Origin: an uncultured archaeon
GTDB lineage: Archaea; Asgardarchaeota; Heimdallarchaeia; Heimdallarchaeales; Kariarchaeaceae
Reading direction: 5' to 3'
NCBI GenBank assembly: GCA_964645535.1
Contig: CAZYCQ010000009.1
Span: 6,536-70,535 of the forward strand
DNA length: 64,000 nt
This document shows, one piece after another, positions 1 through 62,055 of the stretch (within the stretch, counting starts at the first letter, position 1; the number at the start of each line of letters is the position of its first letter). The translations under genes were made by a program, and so were the position numbers. A model generated the notes under the pieces. That model was given only the letters and a program-made list of their open reading frames with translations, was not told the origin of the DNA and did no database searches.

Positions 1-102
1 CAGAATAGGGATGGTTTGTGTGTAGTTAACCTTTTCGATGCAAAAAGGTTCTTCTTTTCTAAGGAGTTAGTGTTTAAATTAAGTCATCCTATTGAGGGAA
101 GG

Positions 103-1302
103 ATGTGGAAAATTCTTTTTGTCGGAATTGAAATGACCCTGATTATTTCAGTGGTCTTGGTGGAAGGCCAACCTTCTCTTCACCAGCAACGGGGACGTGA
201 AGGATCCGTCCTCGACTGTTCAGATCCAACAGGGACATATTACCGCGAAGCGATACCTTCAATAGATGCTCCCACATATGAAACTGTTCCTGAAGCAGAT
301 AACTACCTTGACCGTGGTGATCGCATTGTCGGTTTTTTCATTGATGGAACCTGGTATGGTTTTCCCATACGGATACTGAATCGGCATGAAATAGTGAATG
401 ATCTTGAATTAGGCTTGTCCATTACATATTGTCCTCTGACAGGTTCTGCACTGGTCTATCCATTGAATCAGCTTGATGGTAGCACTCTTGGAGTTACTGG
501 TTACCTTTTTGAATCGAATCTTGTTTTCTATGATAGGCATTCTGATAGCTGTTTTGTTCAAATGCTCAGCCTTAGTCTTTCCGGTGAAAGGTTAGGACAA
601 AGATTGACCTATATTCCAACTGTGGATCTTTTTTGGGATGACTGGATGGCTCTATTCCCCGATAGTATGATACTAAGTAGAAACAGCGGTTTCGATCCAG
701 CATACTATGCTGAAGATCAATACCGGAGTTATAGCAAAGACAATTCAATTCTATATCCTGCAAATTTCTTGGATGATGAACCATACAATCTGTATCATCC
801 TAAGACACGTACAATGGTTATCGAACTGGGCAATAAGACTTTTCTCTTTCCAAGCGAGGAATTCTCAACGGATATGGTTGTCCAATTTTCACAGGGCAAC
901 GAAGATTATGTAGTTTTCCATGATAATTCCTCTGGACTATTGCAGGCTTTCAAGGCCAATGGAAAATTTACACCTTTTCGGAATGAGAAAGGGTTGTATT
1001 TCCTAGATGAGGAAGGTAAGGGATATGATGTCCTTGGGAAGGGAATCATCAACCATGAGGATAAATTAGATGTAATTCCAACTTTTGTCTCATATTGGTA
1101 TGCTGCAATTGTTTTCTTTCCTAATTCGAAAATCTTCACTGATACTGACTTTCTCAACTATGATGTAGCTGTTGGAAACCCCTATGTGGTAATTCCTGCC
1201 CAGAAAGCTAGTAACCGTTTCTTCATTTTTGGTATACTTGTCCTGACAATCTCATTCATGGTTACATTAAGATGGATGTGGAAGCGTCAAAAGGGTGAAT
1301 AA
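103..1302 (+). CDS. DUF3179-family protein, signal/TM N-terminus and C-terminal TM anchor
   Basis: Motif GDRIVGFFIDGTWYGFPIRILNRHEIVND...ITYCPLTGSAL is typical of DUF3179. The tracked ORF begins at 16, but ATG 103 (MWKILFVGIEM...) starts the hydrophobic N-terminus. C-terminus is FFIFGILVLTISFMVTLRWMWKRQKGE. Confidence 0.6.
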   Translation: MWKILFVGIEMTLIISVVLVEGQPSLHQQRGREGSVLDCSDPTGTYYREAIPSIDAPTYETVPEADNYLDRGDRIVGFFIDGTWYGFPIRILNRHEIVNDLELGLSITYCPLTGSALVYPLNQLDGSTLGVTGYLFESNLVFYDRHSDSCFVQMLSLSLSGERLGQRLTYIPTVDLFWDDWMALFPDSMILSRNSGFDPAYYAEDQYRSYSKDNSILYPANFLDDEPYNLYHPKTRTMVIELGNKTFLFPSEEFSTDMVVQFSQGNEDYVVFHDNSSGLLQAFKANGKFTPFRNEKGLYFLDEEGKGYDVLGKGIINHEDKLDVIPTFVSYWYAAIVFFPNSKIFTDTDFLNYDVAVGNPYVVIPAQKASNRFFIFGILVLTISFMVTLRWMWKRQKGE

Positions 1303-2457: not shown

Positions 2458-2838
2458 CTACTTTTGGTTGACCATTTTTGTTGCTACAATTTCGAAATAT
2501 CTGTCAAGCTGGAACCTTGCAGGGTGTTTTTCGGTTATGCCAACCTCATCTAGGCTTTCTTTCATTAACTGAACCCATCTGTCTCGTTCCTTGAATCCGA
2601 TTTTGAATGGCATATGCCGTTTTCTTAGCCTAGGATGCCCTCTTTGCTTTTCATAATCTCTTTTTCCTCCGAATCTCTGAATCAGAAAGAGCTTTTGCCA
2701 TTTCTTACCTTCTTCGAGATCGTCAGGAAAAAGAGGGCGCAACAATGGGTCTTTTTCGATTTTGGAATAAAAGATTTCAACTAATCGTTCTACTGTTTTC
2801 TCTCCTCCGATCAACTCAAGCAGATCTACCTCTTCCAT
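2458..2838 (-). CDS. truncated hemoglobin (bacterial-like globin, group II-like)
   Basis: LIGGEKTVERLVEIFYSKIEKDPLLRPLFP...FGGKRDYEKQRGHPRLRKRHMPFKIGFKERDRWVQLM matches the trHb pattern (GG, FY..., DP.LR.LFP, HP.LR.RH.PF.I). Confidence 0.8.
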   Translation of the reverse strand: MEEVDLLELIGGEKTVERLVEIFYSKIEKDPLLRPLFPDDLEEGKKWQKLFLIQRFGGKRDYEKQRGHPRLRKRHMPFKIGFKERDRWVQLMKESLDEVGITEKHPARFQLDRYFEIVATKMVNQK

Positions 2839-11990: not shown

Positions 11991-14663
11991 ATGGCTAAAA
12001 AAAAGTATCTGACTGTGACTGAATTAAGGGATCAACTGAATGCCTATATGGAACGAGAGGATCGTCTTGTTCCTGTCGAAATTATTGAACAGCTTGAGGA
12101 TAAAATCCTCCAAAGGGCCTCGGAAATTGCCAAGAAAAAGAAAGAGAATGCTGCCGGAAAAACATACATCACCCAAGAGCAGTTGGATCAGTTGATGATC
12201 GAAATCTTTCGTTCCTATACTTTTGCGGAGATGGAGCCTGGGACTTCTGCTGGGGTGGTTTCCGCACAAAGTATTGGAGAACCGGGAACCCAAATGTCAC
12301 TGAGTGGCGATGAACTTGTCTTGATTATGGATGAAAATGTTGTTCAAAGTGTTAGAATCGGTGAGTTCATTGATGAATTGCTTGAGAGTAAATCTGCAAA
12401 GGTGAATGGAGAGACTGCAATACTGGATTTCCCTCCTCATCATCCAATTTTTGTTCCTGCAATATCGGATGATGAGACCATCGCTTGGAAACGATTGAGG
12501 CAGGTCTCACGACATGCTCCAAATGGTGATCTCATTCGAGTTAAAACTAAATCTGGTCGTCAAATAATTGCTACTCCAAGCCATTCCTTCCTTGCAAGAA
12601 AAAACAACAAAATTGTCCCTATCAGAGGTTCCGAATTGAGACCAGGGGACTTTGTTCCAATTGCACTTGGAATTCCATCAGTCAACCCAATTTCTATAAT
12701 TTACTTTGAGGAAGATTCAATTCGTCTTGGTCATACCGTAGTGGAACAGGCTTTAGTGACTCCTCAAGGTGAGATCGTTGGAGCCTCATCCCCATCCAAT
12801 TCATTTTCAATTTCTCTTGATGAGACCTTTGGGTATTTCCTTGGTACACTAATAACGGTAGGTTTCAATGAAGGCGAGGATTTGGTTATTTCTACCCCTC
12901 GTCCAAATTTCTATGATGATCTTCTTTCTTATTTTGAAACAAATGGAATTGAAGTGGATCTTGCACAAGACATTCTTGAAGGGGAACTGTATGAAATTCG
13001 TGTCCACAACGAAGATCTTGCCTACGCAGTGGATCTTCTCATTGAGGCGTTTGATGATGGAACCTCAACCCCGGTTTGGATACTCAATACCCCTCATGAT
13101 TTCATAAAGGCATTTCTCCATGGTGTATTTGACCATGGGGGCGAAATTTTGGAAGGGCATATCTCATTCAAATTTGCAAACCATGATTTCATCATGCTTC
13201 TAACCCATTTAATTGGTAAGTTTGGAATTTTCACGGAAATAAGAAGAACCCCTGAATTTTCCGAATTAATCATTCCATCCGAATTTCTCCTTTCCTTCAA
13301 TGATCATATAGGGTTCCGATCTCCCAAAAAATCTAATAAATTACTCTCCCTTGTGGAACACGTCAAACGATTGGATTTGGTTCCAGGATTGGAAGAATTA
13401 ATTAAGGAGTTCAATAAAAAACTTGGAACTTCATTTCCGATTGCCGATGCTCTTCCCCGCCATGAAATTGTTGGAATTATCCAAGAATCGCAGAAAATTT
13501 CCAATGAGAAAGGTGTTGACATCTCCAATGAAATCTCAATGCTTGTTCGTGCCTCTGAGAGCCCCGTCTTTTGGGATACTGTCTTAATGATTGAACATAT
13601 AGAATCACCAACAAAATATGTATATGATTTTGCTGTGGATGGTTTTGAAACCTTCACCACATTTGATGGTATTCTTACACACAATACTCTACGTACTTTC
13701 CACTTTGCGGGTGTCAGGGAGATGAATGTCACTCTCGGTCTGCCTCGTCTCATTGAATTGGTTGATGCAAGACGTAATCCTAGCACCCCCTCAATGACCG
13801 TTGCCTTGAAGGGAGAATACGCCCATGATGAGGCAAAAGCAAAACAGGTTGCCCAAAACATTGAGCTTACTACAGTTCATAGCGTTGCCTCAGGTCTGGA
13901 AATTGACCAAATCCATCTCCGAGTGAATATTCTCTTGGATAGGGAGCTTCTTGAGGATAAGGGCATCACTGCTGAAGATGTGCGTCAGAAAATCCTTGAA
14001 AAACGGGTTGCCAGTAAGGTCAAAGTTGAAGACAATCTGATCATTGTCACCCCTGATAAGGAAGACCCCACACTTCAAGATCTTCAAAAACTTTCAGAGA
14101 AGCTAAGAATGATCCCGATCAAGGGGCTTCGAGGTGTGGCTCGTGTCATGATCCGCAAAAAGAAAATTGAAGAGGGTGATGAAGAGAAGGTAGAATACCA
14201 GATCCTTACAGAAGGAAGCAACTTCAAGCAGTTGATGAGGGTACTGGGTGTTGATCCTCGTAATTCCTATACCAATCATATCCACGAAATTGCAGAAACC
14301 TTGGGCATTGAAGCAGCAAGAAATGCCATCATCAAAGAGGCAAAAGAAGTGATGGAAAAACAGGGTCTGGAGGTAGATCAGAGACATCTGATGCTTGTTG
14401 CGGATCTTATGACCTATTCTGGAGAAATCCGACAGATTGGGCGTCATGGTATCTCTGGTGAAAATGCTTCAATTCTAGCAAGGGCTGGATTTGAAGTTAC
14501 CGTCAAACACCTTTTGGATGCCTCAGTACGTGGTGAGGAAGACCATTTGGTTGGTATTATCGAAAATGTCATCGTTGGTCAAGAAATCGCGATTGGTACT
14601 GGAATGGTGGATCTGACTATTTCACCTAACTACCGAGAATTCGCTCCTAAAAAAGAAAAATAA
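11991..14663 (+). CDS. rpoA2: DNA-directed RNA polymerase subunit A'' interrupted by an intein
   Basis: Extein motifs SIGEPGTQM and TLRTFHFAGV are separated by 463 aa. The C-terminal part (GLPRLIEL..., HLMLVADLMT, GISGENASILARAGFE) is typical A''. The extein sum is 427 aa. Confidence 0.95.
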   Translation: MAKKKYLTVTELRDQLNAYMEREDRLVPVEIIEQLEDKILQRASEIAKKKKENAAGKTYITQEQLDQLMIEIFRSYTFAEMEPGTSAGVVSAQSIGEPGTQMSLSGDELVLIMDENVVQSVRIGEFIDELLESKSAKVNGETAILDFPPHHPIFVPAISDDETIAWKRLRQVSRHAPNGDLIRVKTKSGRQIIATPSHSFLARKNNKIVPIRGSELRPGDFVPIALGIPSVNPISIIYFEEDSIRLGHTVVEQALVTPQGEIVGASSPSNSFSISLDETFGYFLGTLITVGFNEGEDLVISTPRPNFYDDLLSYFETNGIEVDLAQDILEGELYEIRVHNEDLAYAVDLLIEAFDDGTSTPVWILNTPHDFIKAFLHGVFDHGGEILEGHISFKFANHDFIMLLTHLIGKFGIFTEIRRTPEFSELIIPSEFLLSFNDHIGFRSPKKSNKLLSLVEHVKRLDLVPGLEELIKEFNKKLGTSFPIADALPRHEIVGIIQESQKISNEKGVDISNEISMLVRASESPVFWDTVLMIEHIESPTKYVYDFAVDGFETFTTFDGILTHNTLRTFHFAGVREMNVTLGLPRLIELVDARRNPSTPSMTVALKGEYAHDEAKAKQVAQNIELTTVHSVASGLEIDQIHLRVNILLDRELLEDKGITAEDVRQKILEKRVASKVKVEDNLIIVTPDKEDPTLQDLQKLSEKLRMIPIKGLRGVARVMIRKKKIEEGDEEKVEYQILTEGSNFKQLMRVLGVDPRNSYTNHIHEIAETLGIEAARNAIIKEAKEVMEKQGLEVDQRHLMLVADLMTYSGEIRQIGRHGISGENASILARAGFEVTVKHLLDASVRGEEDHLVGIIENVIVGQEIAIGTGMVDLTISPNYREFAPKKEK
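12297..13685 (+). mobile_element. intein (463 aa) with LAGLIDADG-type homing-endonuclease domain
   Basis: Begins with Ser (SLSGDELVLIMD, block A). Block B is IATPSHSF. LAGLIDADG-like motifs are FGYFLGTLITVGF and FIKAFLHGVFDHGGE. Block F is YVYDFAVDGFETFTT. Ends ILTHN, followed by the +1 Thr. Confidence 0.85.
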
Positions 14664-14722: not shown

Positions 14723-15166
14723 ATGGCAAAATCAAAGAGTCCAAACGGAGAATTCGCTGCTAGGAAGCTCCTCAAAAAAAGACAAAAAATGAGATGGAAG
14801 GACATATACTATAAGAGGAGAATGCTTGGTCTGAACAAAAAAGCTGATCCCTTGGAAGGAGCACCTCAAGCAACAGGTGTTGTTCTTGACAAGTATGGTG
14901 TAGGGTCCAAACAACCCAACAGTGCTTTGAGAAAATGCGTCCGTGTTCAGTTGATTAAAAACGGCAAACAAATCGGTGCCTACGTTCCTCATGATGGTGG
15001 TCTTCTCTATATCAATGTTCATGATCAAGTTACTGTTGAAGGTATTGGTGGTGCACAAAAGGGTGCAAAAGGTGACATTCCAGGTATCAAGTGGCGTGTC
15101 ATGAAAGTCAATGGTGTTGCTCTTTCGGAGCTTGTAACTGGTCGTAAGGAAAAAGCAAATCGTTAA
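14723..15166 (+). CDS. rps12: 30S ribosomal protein uS12 (S12/S23)
   Basis: [31 protein letters not shown]...[16 protein letters not shown], 147 aa. Confidence 0.95.
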
Positions 15167-15169
15167 AAC

Positions 15170-15799
15170 TCAACTAACTTCTTTTAGCAGATAGTATTTC
15201 TTTCTGAGTTTGAAAAATCTTTTAGCGAACTCAGTTTCACTTATTTCAACTGCATCAAACTTGTCCTCTAGCATATCCAGTTCTGTTTCAATCCCTAACA
15301 ATGTATCTTCAACCAATTGCTGCTTATTTACTTCTGTAACTGGTTGATATGTTGTTTGAGCCAGTTCTGATTTCTTCTGGGCTATGATTGTTTCCAATTG
15401 CTGCTTTTGTTGTTCCAACGCGGCCTTTTGCATGTCCAAAGCAACATTGATCGGGGTTGCCGATCTTGATGGATTAAGTCTTCCCCCCTTGATCAAATTT
15501 TCCGCTTCCTTAATCACTTGAAAAACATGGTATTCTGATTTCCATCGTCTCATCTTTCGAGTATGGAGATAACCTTCTGGATCTGCTGCAGGATGTTCGC
15601 CATTCAATATACGGATTGATGGAGGACGAAACGGGAAATTGTCTGGAAGCTCAACCAAAACTTCGACGGGTTGTCCGAAAGCGTCTGATACTCTTCCGAT
15701 CCATTTGTAGAGGTTTCCATTTTTTGGGCTGAAGCCACTGTTATATCTATAGATCAGAAATGCTTCTTTGCTAAGAACTGCATCATCTGCCATTTTCAT
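15170..15799 (-). CDS. UEV (cysteine-free UBC-fold) + coiled coil + steadiness-box-like protein, Tsg101/Vps23-like
   Basis: YKWIGRVSDAFGQPVEVLVELPDNFPFRPPSIRILNGEHPAADPEGYLHTRKMRRWK follows the E2/UEV core pattern. The protein contains no Cys at all. It has a Q/E/L-rich heptad region, and the C-terminus ISETEFAKRFFKLRKKYYLLKE resembles the Tsg101 steadiness box. Confidence 0.6.
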   Translation of the reverse strand: MKMADDAVLSKEAFLIYRYNSGFSPKNGNLYKWIGRVSDAFGQPVEVLVELPDNFPFRPPSIRILNGEHPAADPEGYLHTRKMRRWKSEYHVFQVIKEAENLIKGGRLNPSRSATPINVALDMQKAALEQQKQQLETIIAQKKSELAQTTYQPVTEVNKQQLVEDTLLGIETELDMLEDKFDAVEISETEFAKRFFKLRKKYYLLKEVS

Positions 15800-15874
15800 A
15801 CATTACTTGATTCTTACGTATTTATGTCTGTCCTTTCTCCTTTGAAATTGTACGTAAAAATTAAGTGTTAGTAT

Positions 15875-18037: not shown

Positions 18038-18763
18038 ATGAGCGAAGAGCAAGGCGCAGTAAAGCGAACCCTAAAATTCATAGTACAAAACATCGATAAG
18101 CTTCGGGAGCAAGTTGGTCTGAAATTTCAACAAATCGATGAGCAATTGGCTTCCTTTGGACAAGAGATAGAATCCATTAAAAGTGAAGTTCAACGGTTGC
18201 AGGCTTCCATTTCTCAACCAAAACCCACAACTGAAATTACTCAACTGGCACAACGGATCCAATCACTTGAAACTGCTATTGCAGGATTGAAATCAAACAT
18301 TTCTTCTACATCCTCCGTTTCATCATCCGTTACTCCATCACAAATTCCCACACCTCCAGTTTCACCCCCTGTTCCTGTAAGGAAGTCCAGTCCAGCCATC
18401 CCCCCCACAACAACTCCTTCAACTCAACCATCTCCTATCCCACGGAGTCCTCCCGCAACATCATCTTCTGCTCCTGCTCCACCTCCTCCCCCACCTTCAA
18501 ATCCTCCTTCTCCCCCACCTAGTGCTGGGCTTTCCGCTTCCCCACCTCCTCCTTCAACTCAACCATCTCCTATCCCACGGAGTCCTCCCGCAACATCATC
18601 TTCTGCTCCTGCTCCACCTCCTCCCCCATCTTCAAATCCTCCTTCTCCTCCTCCCGCAACAAAGGAGAGACCTGCTTCCCCGTCATCAACTATGAAAGTT
18701 TCTGCTGATTCAGATGATAAAAAAGAACTTATGGAAGCTTTGAGAATACTTGATGACATATAG
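18038..18763 (+). CDS. coiled-coil protein with duplicated proline-rich low-complexity region
   Basis: N-terminal heptad-rich ~90 aa. Then about 130 aa of P/S/T/A containing two copies of TQPSPIPRSPPATSSSAPAPPPPP.SNPPSPPP. Acidic amphipathic C-terminus DDKKELMEALRILDDI. Confidence 0.6.
   Translation: MSEEQGAVKRTLKFIVQNIDKLREQVGLKFQQIDEQLASFGQEIESIKSEVQRLQASISQPKPTTEITQLAQRIQSLETAIAGLKSNISSTSSVSSSVTPSQIPTPPVSPPVPVRKSSPAIPPTTTPSTQPSPIPRSPPATSSSAPAPPPPPPSNPPSPPPSAGLSASPPPPSTQPSPIPRSPPATSSSAPAPPPPPSSNPPSPPPATKERPASPSSTMKVSADSDDKKELMEALRILDDI
18414..18648. repeat. direct duplication, two 100-nt copies, period 135 nt
   Basis: 18414-18513 versus 18549-18648 differ at a single position by hand alignment. 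The duplication is in frame (45 codons) inside the proline-rich CDS. Confidence 0.85.
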
Positions 18764-47424: not shown

Positions 47425-48015
47425 ATGGCTTGGTATGATGATTGGTTTTTTGAAATTGTCCATGCTCTGAATCTTCATAAACCCCCTCTCTCCTCAATCT
47501 TTCTCATTTTTGTTTCCATATTCATCAGCTTTTTCTCTGCTGGGGTCACAAGACTCCTCATCAACACAAAGGAATTGAATCGCCTTCAAACATTACTGAA
47601 GGAATTCAATGAACGAAAATCAAAGGCAATTCGAGAAAAAGACCCCAAACTCTGGATATCTGTCAAATACCATGAGGCAGATATGACAGAGGTACAGCAA
47701 TCAATGATGATGAAACAGATCATTCCTCAGATCATCATTTCAGTGACATTTATCGTATTCTTCGGTATACTTCGTCGATCAATGGGTGATCCCTCTCTCA
47801 ATCTAACTCCTGATAGAGGAGGAATTGTAGCGATTTTGCCATTTAGAATCCCCTCCTCAATCCCTTTAATCGGTGGATGGTTCAGTCAATATGCAAATGA
47901 TCCAAATCTAAGTGCGGCTGGATTTGGTTTTTGGTATTTCCTCAGTGCTATTTTTACATCTTTTCTTCTCACAAGAATCTTCGGCATCAATCCAAGACGA
48001 CAAATGGGAATGTAA
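47425..48015 (+). CDS. DUF106 / archaeal YidC-like (EMC3/Get1/TMCO1-related) insertase
   Basis: TM1, a basic coiled-coil hairpin (ELNRLQTLLKEFNERKSKAIREKDPK...), then MMKQIIPQIIISVTFIVFFGIL and a third TM. About 196 aa. Confidence 0.6.
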   Translation: MAWYDDWFFEIVHALNLHKPPLSSIFLIFVSIFISFFSAGVTRLLINTKELNRLQTLLKEFNERKSKAIREKDPKLWISVKYHEADMTEVQQSMMMKQIIPQIIISVTFIVFFGILRRSMGDPSLNLTPDRGGIVAILPFRIPSSIPLIGGWFSQYANDPNLSAAGFGFWYFLSAIFTSFLLTRIFGINPRRQMGM

Positions 48016-60141: not shown

Positions 60142-62055
60142 TTGAAGGATTATCAGACACTTGAGGAAATTAAGCGGGAAGTCCAAAAAATCATGCCATC
60201 TTCTGCAAAAGTAAGTGAAATTGAATTTGAGGGATCCGAAGTTGCAGTTTACTGTAAATCAATTGATGTTGTCGTTGATGACCCATCGCTCATTTCCACA
60301 CTTGCAAGGTCACTCCGTCGACGTGTAGTTATTCGTTCCGATCCCTCCATACGTCTTGATCCTTCAAGTGCAGAAGGTATTGTAAAAGATGAAATCAATG
60401 ATTTGGCCAATATTTCATATATCGATTTTGACCATGCAATGGGTGAAGTAATTGTTGAATTGGATCGCCCCGAACTTTTCCAAAACCGAAACAATGAAAT
60501 TGCCAATAGCATTCTCCTGAAAACAGGATGGAGACCGCACTTTTATCGTACTCCTCCCATTGAATCTCAAATGATCAAATCCATTCGGCACATTCTTTTT
60601 TCAGAAACAGAGAGCAGGAAAAAAGCCCTCAAAAAAATTGGCCATATTATCAACCGTCCTACCTTTTTCAGAGAAAAGATATTGCGTATTACTGCGCTTG
60701 GTGGCTATCTCGAAGTCGGAAGATCTTCCACCCTTCTCCAAACCGGAGATGCAAACATTATCGTCGATTGTGGTGTCAATGTAGGATATGATGCTCCTGT
60801 TCAGTATCTTCCTCGTTTTGATCTTCCGGAATTTGATATTAACACACTTGACGCGGTTGTCATCACCCATGCTCATCTTGACCATTCAGGTTTTGTTCCC
60901 TACTTATTCAAATACGGATATCGGGGACCTGTATATTGTACACCCCCTACGCTTTATCTTATGACACTTCTCCAACTTGACTACCTTGATGTTGCAGAAG
61001 CTGAAGGAAAGCTTCCACCTTATTCCAAGTCGGATATTCGGGAAGCAGTTCTCCATACAATCCCCCTGAACTATGGCGAGGTGACCGACATTGCGGCAGG
61101 TGTCAAGTTGACCTTCCATAACGCAGGTCATATTGTGGGCTCAGCAATCGCACATATGCATATCGGAAATGGATTGCATAACATCGCATTCGCCCATGAT
61201 TTTCGATTTGCCAAATCAAGAACGCTTGATCGTGCAGCCCATAAATTTCTTAGACTTGAAACTTTAGTGATGGAATCAACCTATGGCAATCCTAAAGATG
61301 TTGTACCTAGCAGGGAGGAATCCGAAAAACAATTGAAAGAGATCATTATCAAAACAATAAACAGGGGAGGAAAGGTGTTAATCCCTGTACTTGCAGTTGG
61401 ACGGGCACAAGAGCTAATGGTCATCGTTGAAGAACTCATCAGCTCCCAACAGATCCCTGAAGTTCCTGTCTTTGTTGACGGGATGATCCGAGAGGCAAAT
61501 GCCATCACAACCGCTTTTCCCGAGTTTCTTTCAAAGGAATTGCAGGATCGTATTCTCAACAACCAAGACAACCCATTTTTGGCACCCTTTTTCCACAATA
61601 TTTCTGACAGTACTACTCGGGAAGAGATTGTATTGGGGGATCCATGTATCATATTTGCTACCAGTGGCATGCTTGCCGGCGGCCCTTCCCTTCAATACTT
61701 CACTGCCCTTGCTGAAGACCCTAAAAATTCCTTGGTGATTGTTTCCTATCAAGGTAAAGGTACTTTAGGTCGAAAAGTGGAAGATGGTGCAAAAGAAATA
61801 AAGATGAAGGATGAAAAGGGTAAAACCTATTTGCTCAAGGTCAATATGGAGGTTCATAAGATATCTGGTTTTACTGGCCATAGTGATCGAAATGAGTTGA
61901 TGGAATATGTCAGGAGGTTGGTTCCACGTCCAAAACGTTTCGTTATGGTTCATGGAGAAGAAACAAAGTGCAAAAATTTAGCGAAGAGCGTTGGCAAATC
62001 GGTTAAACGCGAGGCTCTTGCCCCTCCGATTGGAACCACAATTTGCCTTACCTAA
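60142..62055 (+). CDS. KH-KH-MBL-beta-CASP ribonuclease aCPSF1 (transcription termination factor type)
   Basis: Two N-terminal KH-like modules, VITHAHLDHSGFVPYLF, ESTYG, GFTGHSD, 637 aa. TTG start. Confidence 0.9.
   Translation: MKDYQTLEEIKREVQKIMPSSAKVSEIEFEGSEVAVYCKSIDVVVDDPSLISTLARSLRRRVVIRSDPSIRLDPSSAEGIVKDEINDLANISYIDFDHAMGEVIVELDRPELFQNRNNEIANSILLKTGWRPHFYRTPPIESQMIKSIRHILFSETESRKKALKKIGHIINRPTFFREKILRITALGGYLEVGRSSTLLQTGDANIIVDCGVNVGYDAPVQYLPRFDLPEFDINTLDAVVITHAHLDHSGFVPYLFKYGYRGPVYCTPPTLYLMTLLQLDYLDVAEAEGKLPPYSKSDIREAVLHTIPLNYGEVTDIAAGVKLTFHNAGHIVGSAIAHMHIGNGLHNIAFAHDFRFAKSRTLDRAAHKFLRLETLVMESTYGNPKDVVPSREESEKQLKEIIIKTINRGGKVLIPVLAVGRAQELMVIVEELISSQQIPEVPVFVDGMIREANAITTAFPEFLSKELQDRILNNQDNPFLAPFFHNISDSTTREEIVLGDPCIIFATSGMLAGGPSLQYFTALAEDPKNSLVIVSYQGKGTLGRKVEDGAKEIKMKDEKGKTYLLKVNMEVHKISGFTGHSDRNELMEYVRRLVPRPKRFVMVHGEETKCKNLAKSVGKSVKREALAPPIGTTICLT

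Follow-up and report, generated by a model that had tools for sequence, protein, structure and literature searches.

The sequence analysed here, referred to below as the window, is a 64,000-nucleotide stretch of contig CAZYCQ010000009.1 from an uncultured archaeon of the Kariarchaeaceae, and the gene under study lies on its minus strand at positions 15170–15799. Its product of 209 residues combines an N-terminal domain with the fold of ubiquitin-conjugating (UBC) enzymes with a predicted long helix and a terminal helical hairpin. This order of elements, i.e., ubiquitin E2 variant (UEV) domain, stalk and steadiness box, is that of Vps23/TSG101 in endosomal sorting complex I required for transport (ESCRT-I). 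As argued below, the protein is probably a divergent Asgard member of the UEV–stalk–steadiness-box family (ESCRT-I-like, "UEV-Vps23") that would serve as a ubiquitin-binding adaptor of the ESCRT-I type. The features of the gene are:

15170..15799, minus strand: whole open reading frame, 209 residues, ATG start, stop codon at 15170–15172
15485..15784, minus strand: UEV domain, residues ~6–105, with a helix (6–19), four strands (24–64), a short helix (81–84) and a further helix (92–104)
15587–15595, minus strand: residues 69–71, HPA in place of the HPN motif in the alignment with UBE2C
15563..15565, minus strand: codon for His79, which in the alignment with UBE2C takes the place of the E2 catalytic cysteine (vestigial active site)
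15452..15484, minus strand: linker, residues 106–116 (GGRLNPSRSAT), lacking PxxP; lower confidence, with a predicted local distance difference test score (pLDDT) of 73 for residues 111–120
15353..15451, minus strand: stalk-like coiled-coil helix rich in Gln, Glu and Leu, residues 117–149 (33 residues), from AlphaFold2, the Mod_r match and alignment to the stalk of VPS28-linked relatives
15254..15334, minus strand: first, acidic helix of the predicted steadiness-box-type hairpin, residues 156–182, net charge −7 (AlphaFold2)
15176..15238, minus strand: second, basic helix of the hairpin, residues 188–208, net charge +4 (AlphaFold2)

The initial annotation of this locus had given the reading frame, a 3-nt gap to rps12 and a distance of 75 nt to a beta-CASP nuclease gene, and all of these positions are correct. 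A second in-frame ATG is present at 15793–15791 (Met3, in the context M-A/V-D-D), and because the remoter homologs in the alignment begin at this position, Met3 is probably the true start of the gene.

The protein is a 100% match to D6732_29215 of the NCBI metagenome-assembled genome GCA_003696825.1, which is labelled "Methanobacteriota archaeon". An ortholog with 68% identity is encoded in GCA_015523565.1 ("Candidatus Heimdallarchaeota archaeon"), where the synteny is identical: beta-CASP gene, UEV gene, and then, convergently, rps12, rpoA'' (with an intein) and rpoA'. With E ≤ 1e-3, an exhaustive profile search gave 75 sequences that represent the family at 50% identity, mostly 200–260 residues long and matched from end to end. 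Every named member is Asgard, with Heimdallarchaeota, Kariarchaeaceae, Hodarchaeota, Odinarchaeia and Lokiarchaeota represented. The label of GCA_003696825.1 is at odds both with the name Heimdallarchaeota given to the relative and with a family seen only in Asgard archaea, and is doubtful; judged from the relatives rather than from phylogenomic placement, the window would derive from a Heimdallarchaeia-related Asgard archaeon, and the label would be a mis-assignment. The window spans two separate contigs of GCA_003696825.1 (RFHV01001277.1 and RFHV01000860.1) and so derives from a more contiguous assembly.

Among the 41 family members that were aligned, Pfam matches are found to UQ_con in 34, to UEV in 22 (at E ≤ 0.01, best 2.9e-10), to Mod_r in 12 and to Vps23_core in 7. 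The full-length members split into a near group (alignment A3) of 204–222 residues with 29–82% identity to the present protein, and a far group (A4) of 236–262 residues. One far member, P0024, is encoded in the row UEV – VPS28 – EAP30 (Vps22/36), which is a canonical ESCRT-I/II cluster. Longer relatives combine the UEV domain with Vps23_core (as in P0028, which exceeds the gathering score with 31.8 bits), or with both Vps23_core and VPS28 in fusion proteins, HeimAB125_14070 among them. In a neighbour-joining tree, made by a crude method (Poisson distances, 200 bootstraps), 17 near sequences including the present one group together in 129 of the 200 replicates and lie apart both from proteins of the Vps23_core type and from the VPS28 fusions; the UEV-Vps23_core-VPS28 fusions form a clade of their own in 200/200. 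The loop between stalk and hairpin is shorter in the near branch than in the far group. The near branch is described here as a divergent Heimdall/Kari-type group, of ~205–220 residues, within the Asgard UEV–stalk–steadiness-box family.

The UBC/UEV core proposed in the initial annotation for the N-terminal part is borne out by sequence as well as by the predicted structure. Residues ~24–105 align with catalytic E2s such as UBE2C (E 4.5e-6, phmmer against the PDB), and a profile of the 41 family sequences matches UBE2L3 with E 1.5e-16. For the protein itself, the Pfam scores are 22.6 bits for UQ_con (PF00179; E 8.8e-5) and 15.9 bits for UEV (PF05743; E 0.012), and both fall short of the gathering score, which is 27 in either case. 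The full-length AlphaFold2 model has a pLDDT of 90.7 and a predicted template modelling score (pTM) of 0.74, with pLDDT >93 across residues 11–110. When this model is submitted to Foldseek, E2s are returned at E ~1e-6 with a root-mean-square deviation (rmsd) of 2.2–2.8 Å over ~105–114 columns, and the top 50 matches are all E2s; the E2 core dominates this search, which does not inform on the C-terminus. In the AlphaFold2 model, the core ends at helix 92–104, and the E2 helices α3 and α4 are missing, as in Tsg101-type UEVs.

The protein contains no cysteine among its 209 residues, His79 occupies the column of the catalytic cysteine, and Cys is found in that column in 0 of the 41 aligned family members. 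Because the protein is cysteine-free and has His at the catalytic column, formation of a thioester is impossible, and a catalytic E2 is excluded, in agreement with the initial annotation. The N-terminal domain is a UEV in the strict sense, i.e., a UBC fold unable to form a thioester. An RWD domain was also considered and rejected, as the protein has no RWD match and such matches occur only in the unrelated triple-UBC proteins P0049 and P0052. The latter are Asgard-family matches of ~615 residues with three UBC-fold stretches and an RWD-like signal, which is an unusual multi-UBC architecture.

The higher score of UQ_con relative to UEV in Pfam, and the exclusive retrieval of E2s by Foldseek, would fit a UEV that functions independently of ESCRT, either as an E2 cofactor of the Mms2/Uev1 type or as a reader of ubiquitin-like modifiers at the transcription or translation apparatus, with C-terminal helices that only oligomerise. 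In UEVs of the Mms2 type, however, the UBC fold is complete, whereas the domain described here is truncated past helix α2, like that of Tsg101. We return to this alternative in connection with the gene neighbourhoods.

Beyond the linker, the AlphaFold2 model contains the coiled-coil region that the initial annotation had placed after the UEV domain (helix 117–149), followed by the hairpin. A model of the C-terminal part alone (pLDDT 86 overall and 94–98 over the hairpin) shows the same helices as the full-length model. As modelled, the C-terminus is a stalk helix with a distinct hairpin and not a single continuous coiled coil; it is the latter that the initial annotation had named as counting against its own proposal. 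The C-terminal model superposes in Foldseek on yeast Vps23-C with an rmsd of 0.9 Å (2f6m_C) or 1.1 Å (2f66_A) over 53 columns, and on VPS37B with 1.3 Å (6vme_C). Five ESCRT-I core entries (2p22, 2caz, 2f66, 2f6m, and 6vme) account for 16 of the top 50 PDB matches of the C-terminal model, and CdvA for three; in this search, enrichment and rmsd are usable and E-values are not. The predicted hairpin has the geometry of the headpiece hairpins of Vps23, Vps37 and Vps28.

The relationship to ESCRT-I at the level of sequence runs through the far group. The C-termini of the near and far groups align over stalk and hairpin with 98% probability in hhalign (A3 against A4, E 1.5e-13), and among the far-group C-termini Vps23_core is matched in 9 of 19 (best 3.7e-7). 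The far group also aligns directly to the head of TSG101 (E 9.6e-4) and to that of VPS37B (E 5.5e-5), the two head sequences being 100% identical to chains B and C of PDB entry 6VME. All four hhalign comparisons of the two groups with the two heads share one register, in which the hairpin turn motif EISETEF corresponds to VIDLDVF in TSG101 (from GVIDLDVF) and to ELPLDSF in VPS37B (from GELPLDSF). The charges of the two hairpin helices (−7 and +4) fit the acidic-then-basic pattern that Lu et al. (bioRxiv 10.1101/2023.07.25.550441) give for steadiness boxes, and the turn motif is conserved, as is the charge asymmetry. On these profile comparisons, the C-terminal half of the protein is homologous to the stalk and steadiness box of Asgard proteins that are encoded beside VPS28 and EAP30. 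For the protein itself, a steadiness-box-type stalk and hairpin is supported transitively and by the predicted structure. The initial annotation had aligned the last ~25 residues with the TSG101 steadiness box; the register was reproduced by hhalign, if weakly in the near group.

Several observations weigh against assignment of the protein to an ESCRT-I-type adaptor. The protein fails every Pfam gathering score (UQ_con 22.6/27, Mod_r 18.1/30.1, and UEV 15.9/27 bits), and a match to Vps23_core (PF09454) is absent from it, as well as from all 19 near C-termini (0/19) at E ≤ 0.1. The near group aligns weakly to single head sequences (E 0.05 for TSG101 and 0.011 for VPS37B), a HMMER search with the C-terminal profile against PDB sequences gave coiled-coil noise only, and in Foldseek the C-terminal model yields no E-value below 0.8 (best 0.83), i.e., none that is significant. 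The published PxxP motif is present in 0 of 20 near members in either linker; in the far group it is found after the UEV domain in 8 of 21 and before the steadiness box in 3 of 21. As for other ESCRT genes in the same genome, a search with the UEV-Vps23-Vps28 fusion P0035 as query returned Heimdallarchaeaceae fusions only and no D6732_ protein, in a search that reaches close relatives only. When the family alignment A2 was the query, 11 proteins were retrieved, again with no further D6732_ protein among them; both searches depend on shared words, so that absence means little. In eight near-branch neighbourhoods, the UEV gene never adjoins ESCRT or ubiquitin genes. Finally, ubiquitin binding is not safely inferred from the UBC fold, because the UEV-like (UEVL) domain of VPS37A has this fold and binds none (PMC10942982).

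Some of these results, i.e., the coiled-coil noise in the PDB sequence searches and the non-significant structural E-values, together with scattered coiled-coil Pfam matches among the near C-termini (Tropomyosin, MTR4 stalk, and GvpG), are what a compositional coincidence would produce, namely an inactive E2 that is joined to some generic coiled coil and unrelated to ESCRT-I. Such a coincidence is barely credible in view of the alignment of the near C-termini to a Vps23_core-positive group at 98% probability, the concentration of 16 of the top 50 structural neighbours in just five ESCRT-I entries, and the conserved turn motif and charge asymmetry. A reversed-sequence control with the same 19 near C-termini points in the same direction: the Mod_r signal of the near branch, described next, is gone, Mod_r not being among the families listed, and no family is matched in more than 4 of the 19.

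The signal in question is a match to Mod_r (PF07200, Vps37), which the protein gives with 18.1 bits and E 0.0028, below the gathering score of 30.1. The match is colinear with stalk and hairpin, residues 123–207 corresponding to profile positions 58–144 of 146. Among the near-group C-termini (A3), Mod_r is matched in 12 of 19 (best 2.1e-5) and is the sole recurrent Pfam family; for the far-group C-termini (A4), which include the VPS28-linked proteins, Mod_r is not among the families listed. This raises the alternative that the protein is a second, VPS37A-like stalk and headpiece subunit, a paralog of UEV-Vps23 that pairs with a canonical Vps23/Vps28 protein in a heteromeric ESCRT-I core, and in which the role of the UEV domain is perhaps not ubiquitin binding. 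Eukaryotic VPS37A has the same architecture, a UEV-like domain followed by Mod(r) (PMC10942982). The tree, in which the near branch stands apart from Vps23_core-type proteins and VPS28 fusions, and the location of the gene away from an ESCRT cluster, as might be the case for a paralog, would also fit, as would the report of a second Cys-less E2-like protein beside the fusion in Heimdall AB_125 (PMC9192718). However, every Mod_r score lies below the gathering score, and Foldseek favours Vps37 chains no more than Vps23 or Vps28 chains. Moreover, the Vps23_core-matching far group fits the VPS37B head better than the near group does (E 5.5e-5 versus 0.011), and because of this Vps37-likeness is not specific to the branch of the present protein. 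We therefore consider a VPS37A-like subunit unlikely, and it is somewhat less likely again that the near branch is an archaeal Vps37-type subunit that arose by a Vps23/Vps37 duplication older than eukaryotes.

Because the protein is below the gathering scores and its own C-terminal signal is to Mod_r, not to Vps23_core, the choice of the label "Vps23" over "Vps37" or "generic steadiness-box protein" is not established. Of the Vps23 architecture put forward in the initial annotation, the order UEV domain, stalk and hairpin is thus supported, and the specific name is not. In the Pfam comparison that it had suggested, UQ_con and UEV were matched below the gathering scores and Mod_r appeared in place of Vps23_core.

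The neighbourhoods of the UEV gene were compared across the near branch, with the following result:

present gene and 68%-identity relative: directly beside rps12, convergent
P0006 (41% identity): directly upstream of rps12, same strand
P0010 (36% identity): immediate neighbour of rpoA'' and convergent with it; rps12 lies ~5 kb upstream
P0015 (30% identity): directly beside rpoA'', convergent
P0017, P0016 and P0053: rpoA'' and rps12 not adjacent
P0019: short contig, position relative to rpoA'' and rps12 undeterminable

The rpoA'-rpoA''-rps12 block thus flanks the UEV gene in four core lineages (L001/L002, L010, L013, and L014) at 30–68% protein identity, with varying orientation and exact neighbour, and the genes are convergent in three of the four. 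The direct proximity to rpoA'' or rps12, together with the consistent absence of adjoining ESCRT genes, would suit the ESCRT-independent UEV introduced above, in particular a reader located at the transcription or translation apparatus. Yet co-transcription with rpoA''/rps12 is excluded in the three lineages where the genes are convergent, and in P0017, P0016 and P0053 they are no longer neighbours. The specific homology of the C-terminus to the stalk and steadiness box of cluster-encoded ESCRT-I proteins, which the reversed-sequence control separates from a generic coiled coil, also speaks against an ESCRT-independent role, which we regard as highly improbable. The adjacency itself could be due to retained gene order or to a functional link; as the genes are convergent in three of four lineages, retained gene order is favoured over co-expression, and a functional tie to rps12 or rpoA'' was rejected on these grounds. 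The rpoA'' gene of the window (11991–14663, plus strand) encodes 890 residues with an intein inside, Intein_splicing being placed between two RNA_pol_Rpb1_5 halves; rpoA'' of the relatives L013 and L014 is intein-free, with 425–445 residues.

Closer to the gene, four features are relevant to its expression:

14723..15166, plus strand: rps12 (uS12; Pfam Ribosom_S12_S23), convergent with the UEV gene
15819..15825, minus strand: ATAAATA, TATA-box-like, centred ~29 nt upstream of the Met3 ATG; conserved with the 68%-identity relative
15856..15860, minus strand: run of five T, 15–19 nt past the stop codon of the beta-CASP gene; the block around it is conserved in the relative of 68% identity
15875..17815, minus strand: beta-CASP/metallo-beta-lactamase nuclease-like gene, 646 residues (Pfam), on the same strand as the UEV gene

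The UEV gene and rps12 lie tail to tail, separated by the 3 nt at 15167–15169, and the beta-CASP gene lies upstream on the same strand with 75 nt between the two reading frames. From its position, the ATAAATA element may be the promoter of the UEV gene itself, with a leaderless or short-leader mRNA, and the T run is a possible archaeal oligo-T terminator of the upstream beta-CASP gene. Conservation of both elements in the 68%-identity relative suggests that the UEV gene is transcribed independently, probably without a leader. The beta-CASP gene adjoins the UEV gene only in that relative, and not in L010, L013, L014 or L015. An operon of the two genes was rejected, since no relative but the closest retains the pairing and since terminator-like and TATA-like blocks lie between the genes; a functional tie between them is unlikely. 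In the beta-CASP protein, Pfam matches nothing within a ~250-residue N-terminal region, and KH and RMMBL domains are missing; a second beta-CASP nuclease in the window (60142–62055, plus strand) is of the canonical aCPSF1 type, with KH, MBL, beta-CASP and RMMBL domains.

No ESCRT or ubiquitin-system gene is found within the 64-kb window, and the description of the UEV gene as standing alone, outside an ESCRT or ubiquitin cluster, holds for the whole of it. Other genes in the window include a bacterial-like truncated globin (2458–2838, minus strand), a DUF3179 protein (16–1302, plus strand), and a membrane protein of the EMC3/TMCO1 family (DUF106-type; 47425–48015, plus strand). The gene at 18038–18763 (plus strand) encodes 241 residues with an N-terminal coiled coil and then two near-identical proline-rich repeats (…STQPSPIPRSPPATSSSAPAPPPPP…NPPSPPP), for which Pfam yields only coiled-coil noise below threshold (HIP1_clath_bdg and ATG17_like).

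Asgard UEV-Vps23 proteins are well documented (Hatano et al. 2022, PMC9192718; Makarova et al. 2024, PMC10936438; Lu et al., bioRxiv 10.1101/2023.07.25.550441), and binding to ubiquitin as well as to Vps28 has been shown for them in vitro. These proteins (asCOG005829/asCOG007313; Odin, Hel, and others) share with the protein described here the Cys-less UBC fold, the coiled-coil stalk, the acidic/basic hairpin, the restriction to Asgard archaea and the homologous C-termini. They are longer, with ~236–300 residues compared with 209, and the present protein has a shorter loop and lacks the PxxP motif, which near the stalk and steadiness box has been linked to autoinhibition (Lu et al.). The near branch also differs in matching Mod_r instead of Vps23_core, and in not being encoded beside VPS28, EAP30 or ubiquitin. 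A neighbourhood with VPS28, ESCRT-II or ubiquitin genes is typical of the family without being universal: according to Lu et al., the genes for UEV-Vps23 and ubiquitin lie apart in Kari-, Gerd-, Jord- and Heimdallarchaeia. The Heimdallarchaeaceae fusion HeimAB125_14070 is from the same archaeal class and belongs to the same UEV family, being recovered with the same profile; with ~470 residues, Vps23_core and VPS28 it falls in a separate clade, and the present protein has no VPS28 domain.

Two further published descriptions are relevant. Lu et al. described "UEV_X" from Gerd-, Heimdall- and Kariarchaeia (example OLS29001.1), derived from UEV-Vps23, with a C-terminus (residues 170–210) that was GvpG-like at 65% HHpred probability. 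In Heimdall AB_125, a second Cys-less E2-like protein, HeimAB125_11700, which is possibly of the same kind, occurs besides the UEV-Vps23-Vps28 fusion, and its low-confidence C-terminus was dropped from the model (Hatano et al., PMC9192718). The near branch fits these descriptions in the UEV domain and a C-terminal region at ~170–210 that was previously unassignable, in the taxa, in a similar implied length, and in weak GvpG matches. The difference lies in the interpretation, as the C-terminus of UEV_X was called GvpG-like, and that of the present protein is read here as stalk and steadiness-box hairpin. A GvpG-like C-terminus was considered and rejected: the matches are faint, they occur in both groups (near 3/19, far 2/19), and they are treated here as helical-hairpin noise. 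The near branch is probably the UEV_X of Lu et al., which could not be confirmed; OLS29001.1 and HeimAB125_11700 were not found among the 30 family clusters looked up or in the supplements of the papers.

As for the eukaryotic proteins, Vps23/TSG101 and the present protein have in common the order of UEV domain, stalk and steadiness box, the missing catalytic cysteine, the missing helices α3 and α4, and the register of the turn motif. TSG101 is much longer (385–390 residues versus 209), and the present protein is without its extra N-terminal helix, Pro-rich region and PTAP motif. The UEV domain is also nearer to canonical E2s than to the Tsg101 UEV, and the relation of the near-branch C-terminus to TSG101 is not significant (E 0.05). 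Eukaryotic VPS37A, with a UEVL domain (PDB code 8E22) that does not bind ubiquitin and a Mod(r) core (PMC10942982), is likewise similar in having an N-terminal pseudo-E2 and a C-terminal ESCRT-I stalk and head, the best C-terminal Pfam match of the present protein being Mod_r. VPS37A has flanking membrane-inserting motifs; the Mod_r match of the present protein is sub-threshold, and specific orthology is unsupported. Asgard archaea have been stated to have no clear Vps37 homologue (Hatano et al., PMC9192718).

For an ESCRT-I-type adaptor, the preferred interpretation of the protein, a mode of action can be outlined by analogy. Non-covalent binding of ubiquitin, joined in Tsg101 by that of P(S/T)AP peptides, is a property of UEV domains of the Tsg101/Vps23 type. 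The UEV domain would bind ubiquitin non-covalently, in line with measurements on other Asgard UEVs (Hatano 2022, Lu 2023), and the stalk and hairpin would assemble with itself and/or with other steadiness-box proteins, such as Vps28 or a Vps23-type paralog. Ubiquitylated cargo could in this way be coupled to downstream membrane remodelling by ESCRT-II, ESCRT-III and Vps4.

Proteins with UEV domain, stalk and steadiness box link ubiquitin to membrane remodelling by ESCRT, and current models for eukaryogenesis lean heavily on their occurrence in Asgard archaea. The protein described here is another Asgard example of a published and biochemically tested family, and is categorically nothing new; the find is to be expected, as the host is itself an Asgard archaeon and the family had already been published. 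What is documented is a coherent and under-described branch of that family, which is short, free of PxxP, Mod_r-like over Vps23_core-like, never clustered with ESCRT genes, and adjacent to rpoA''/rps12 in four core lineages. The C-terminus of this branch was left unassigned or called GvpG-like in the earlier papers, and reading it as a steadiness box opens the question of whether Heimdallarchaeia already had two different ESCRT-I stalk and head subunits, one Vps23-like and one Vps37-like. If the near branch were a Vps37-type subunit, this would contradict the stated lack of a Vps37 homologue in Asgard archaea (PMC9192718), and a heteromeric ESCRT-I stalk and headpiece would have existed already in Heimdallarchaeia.

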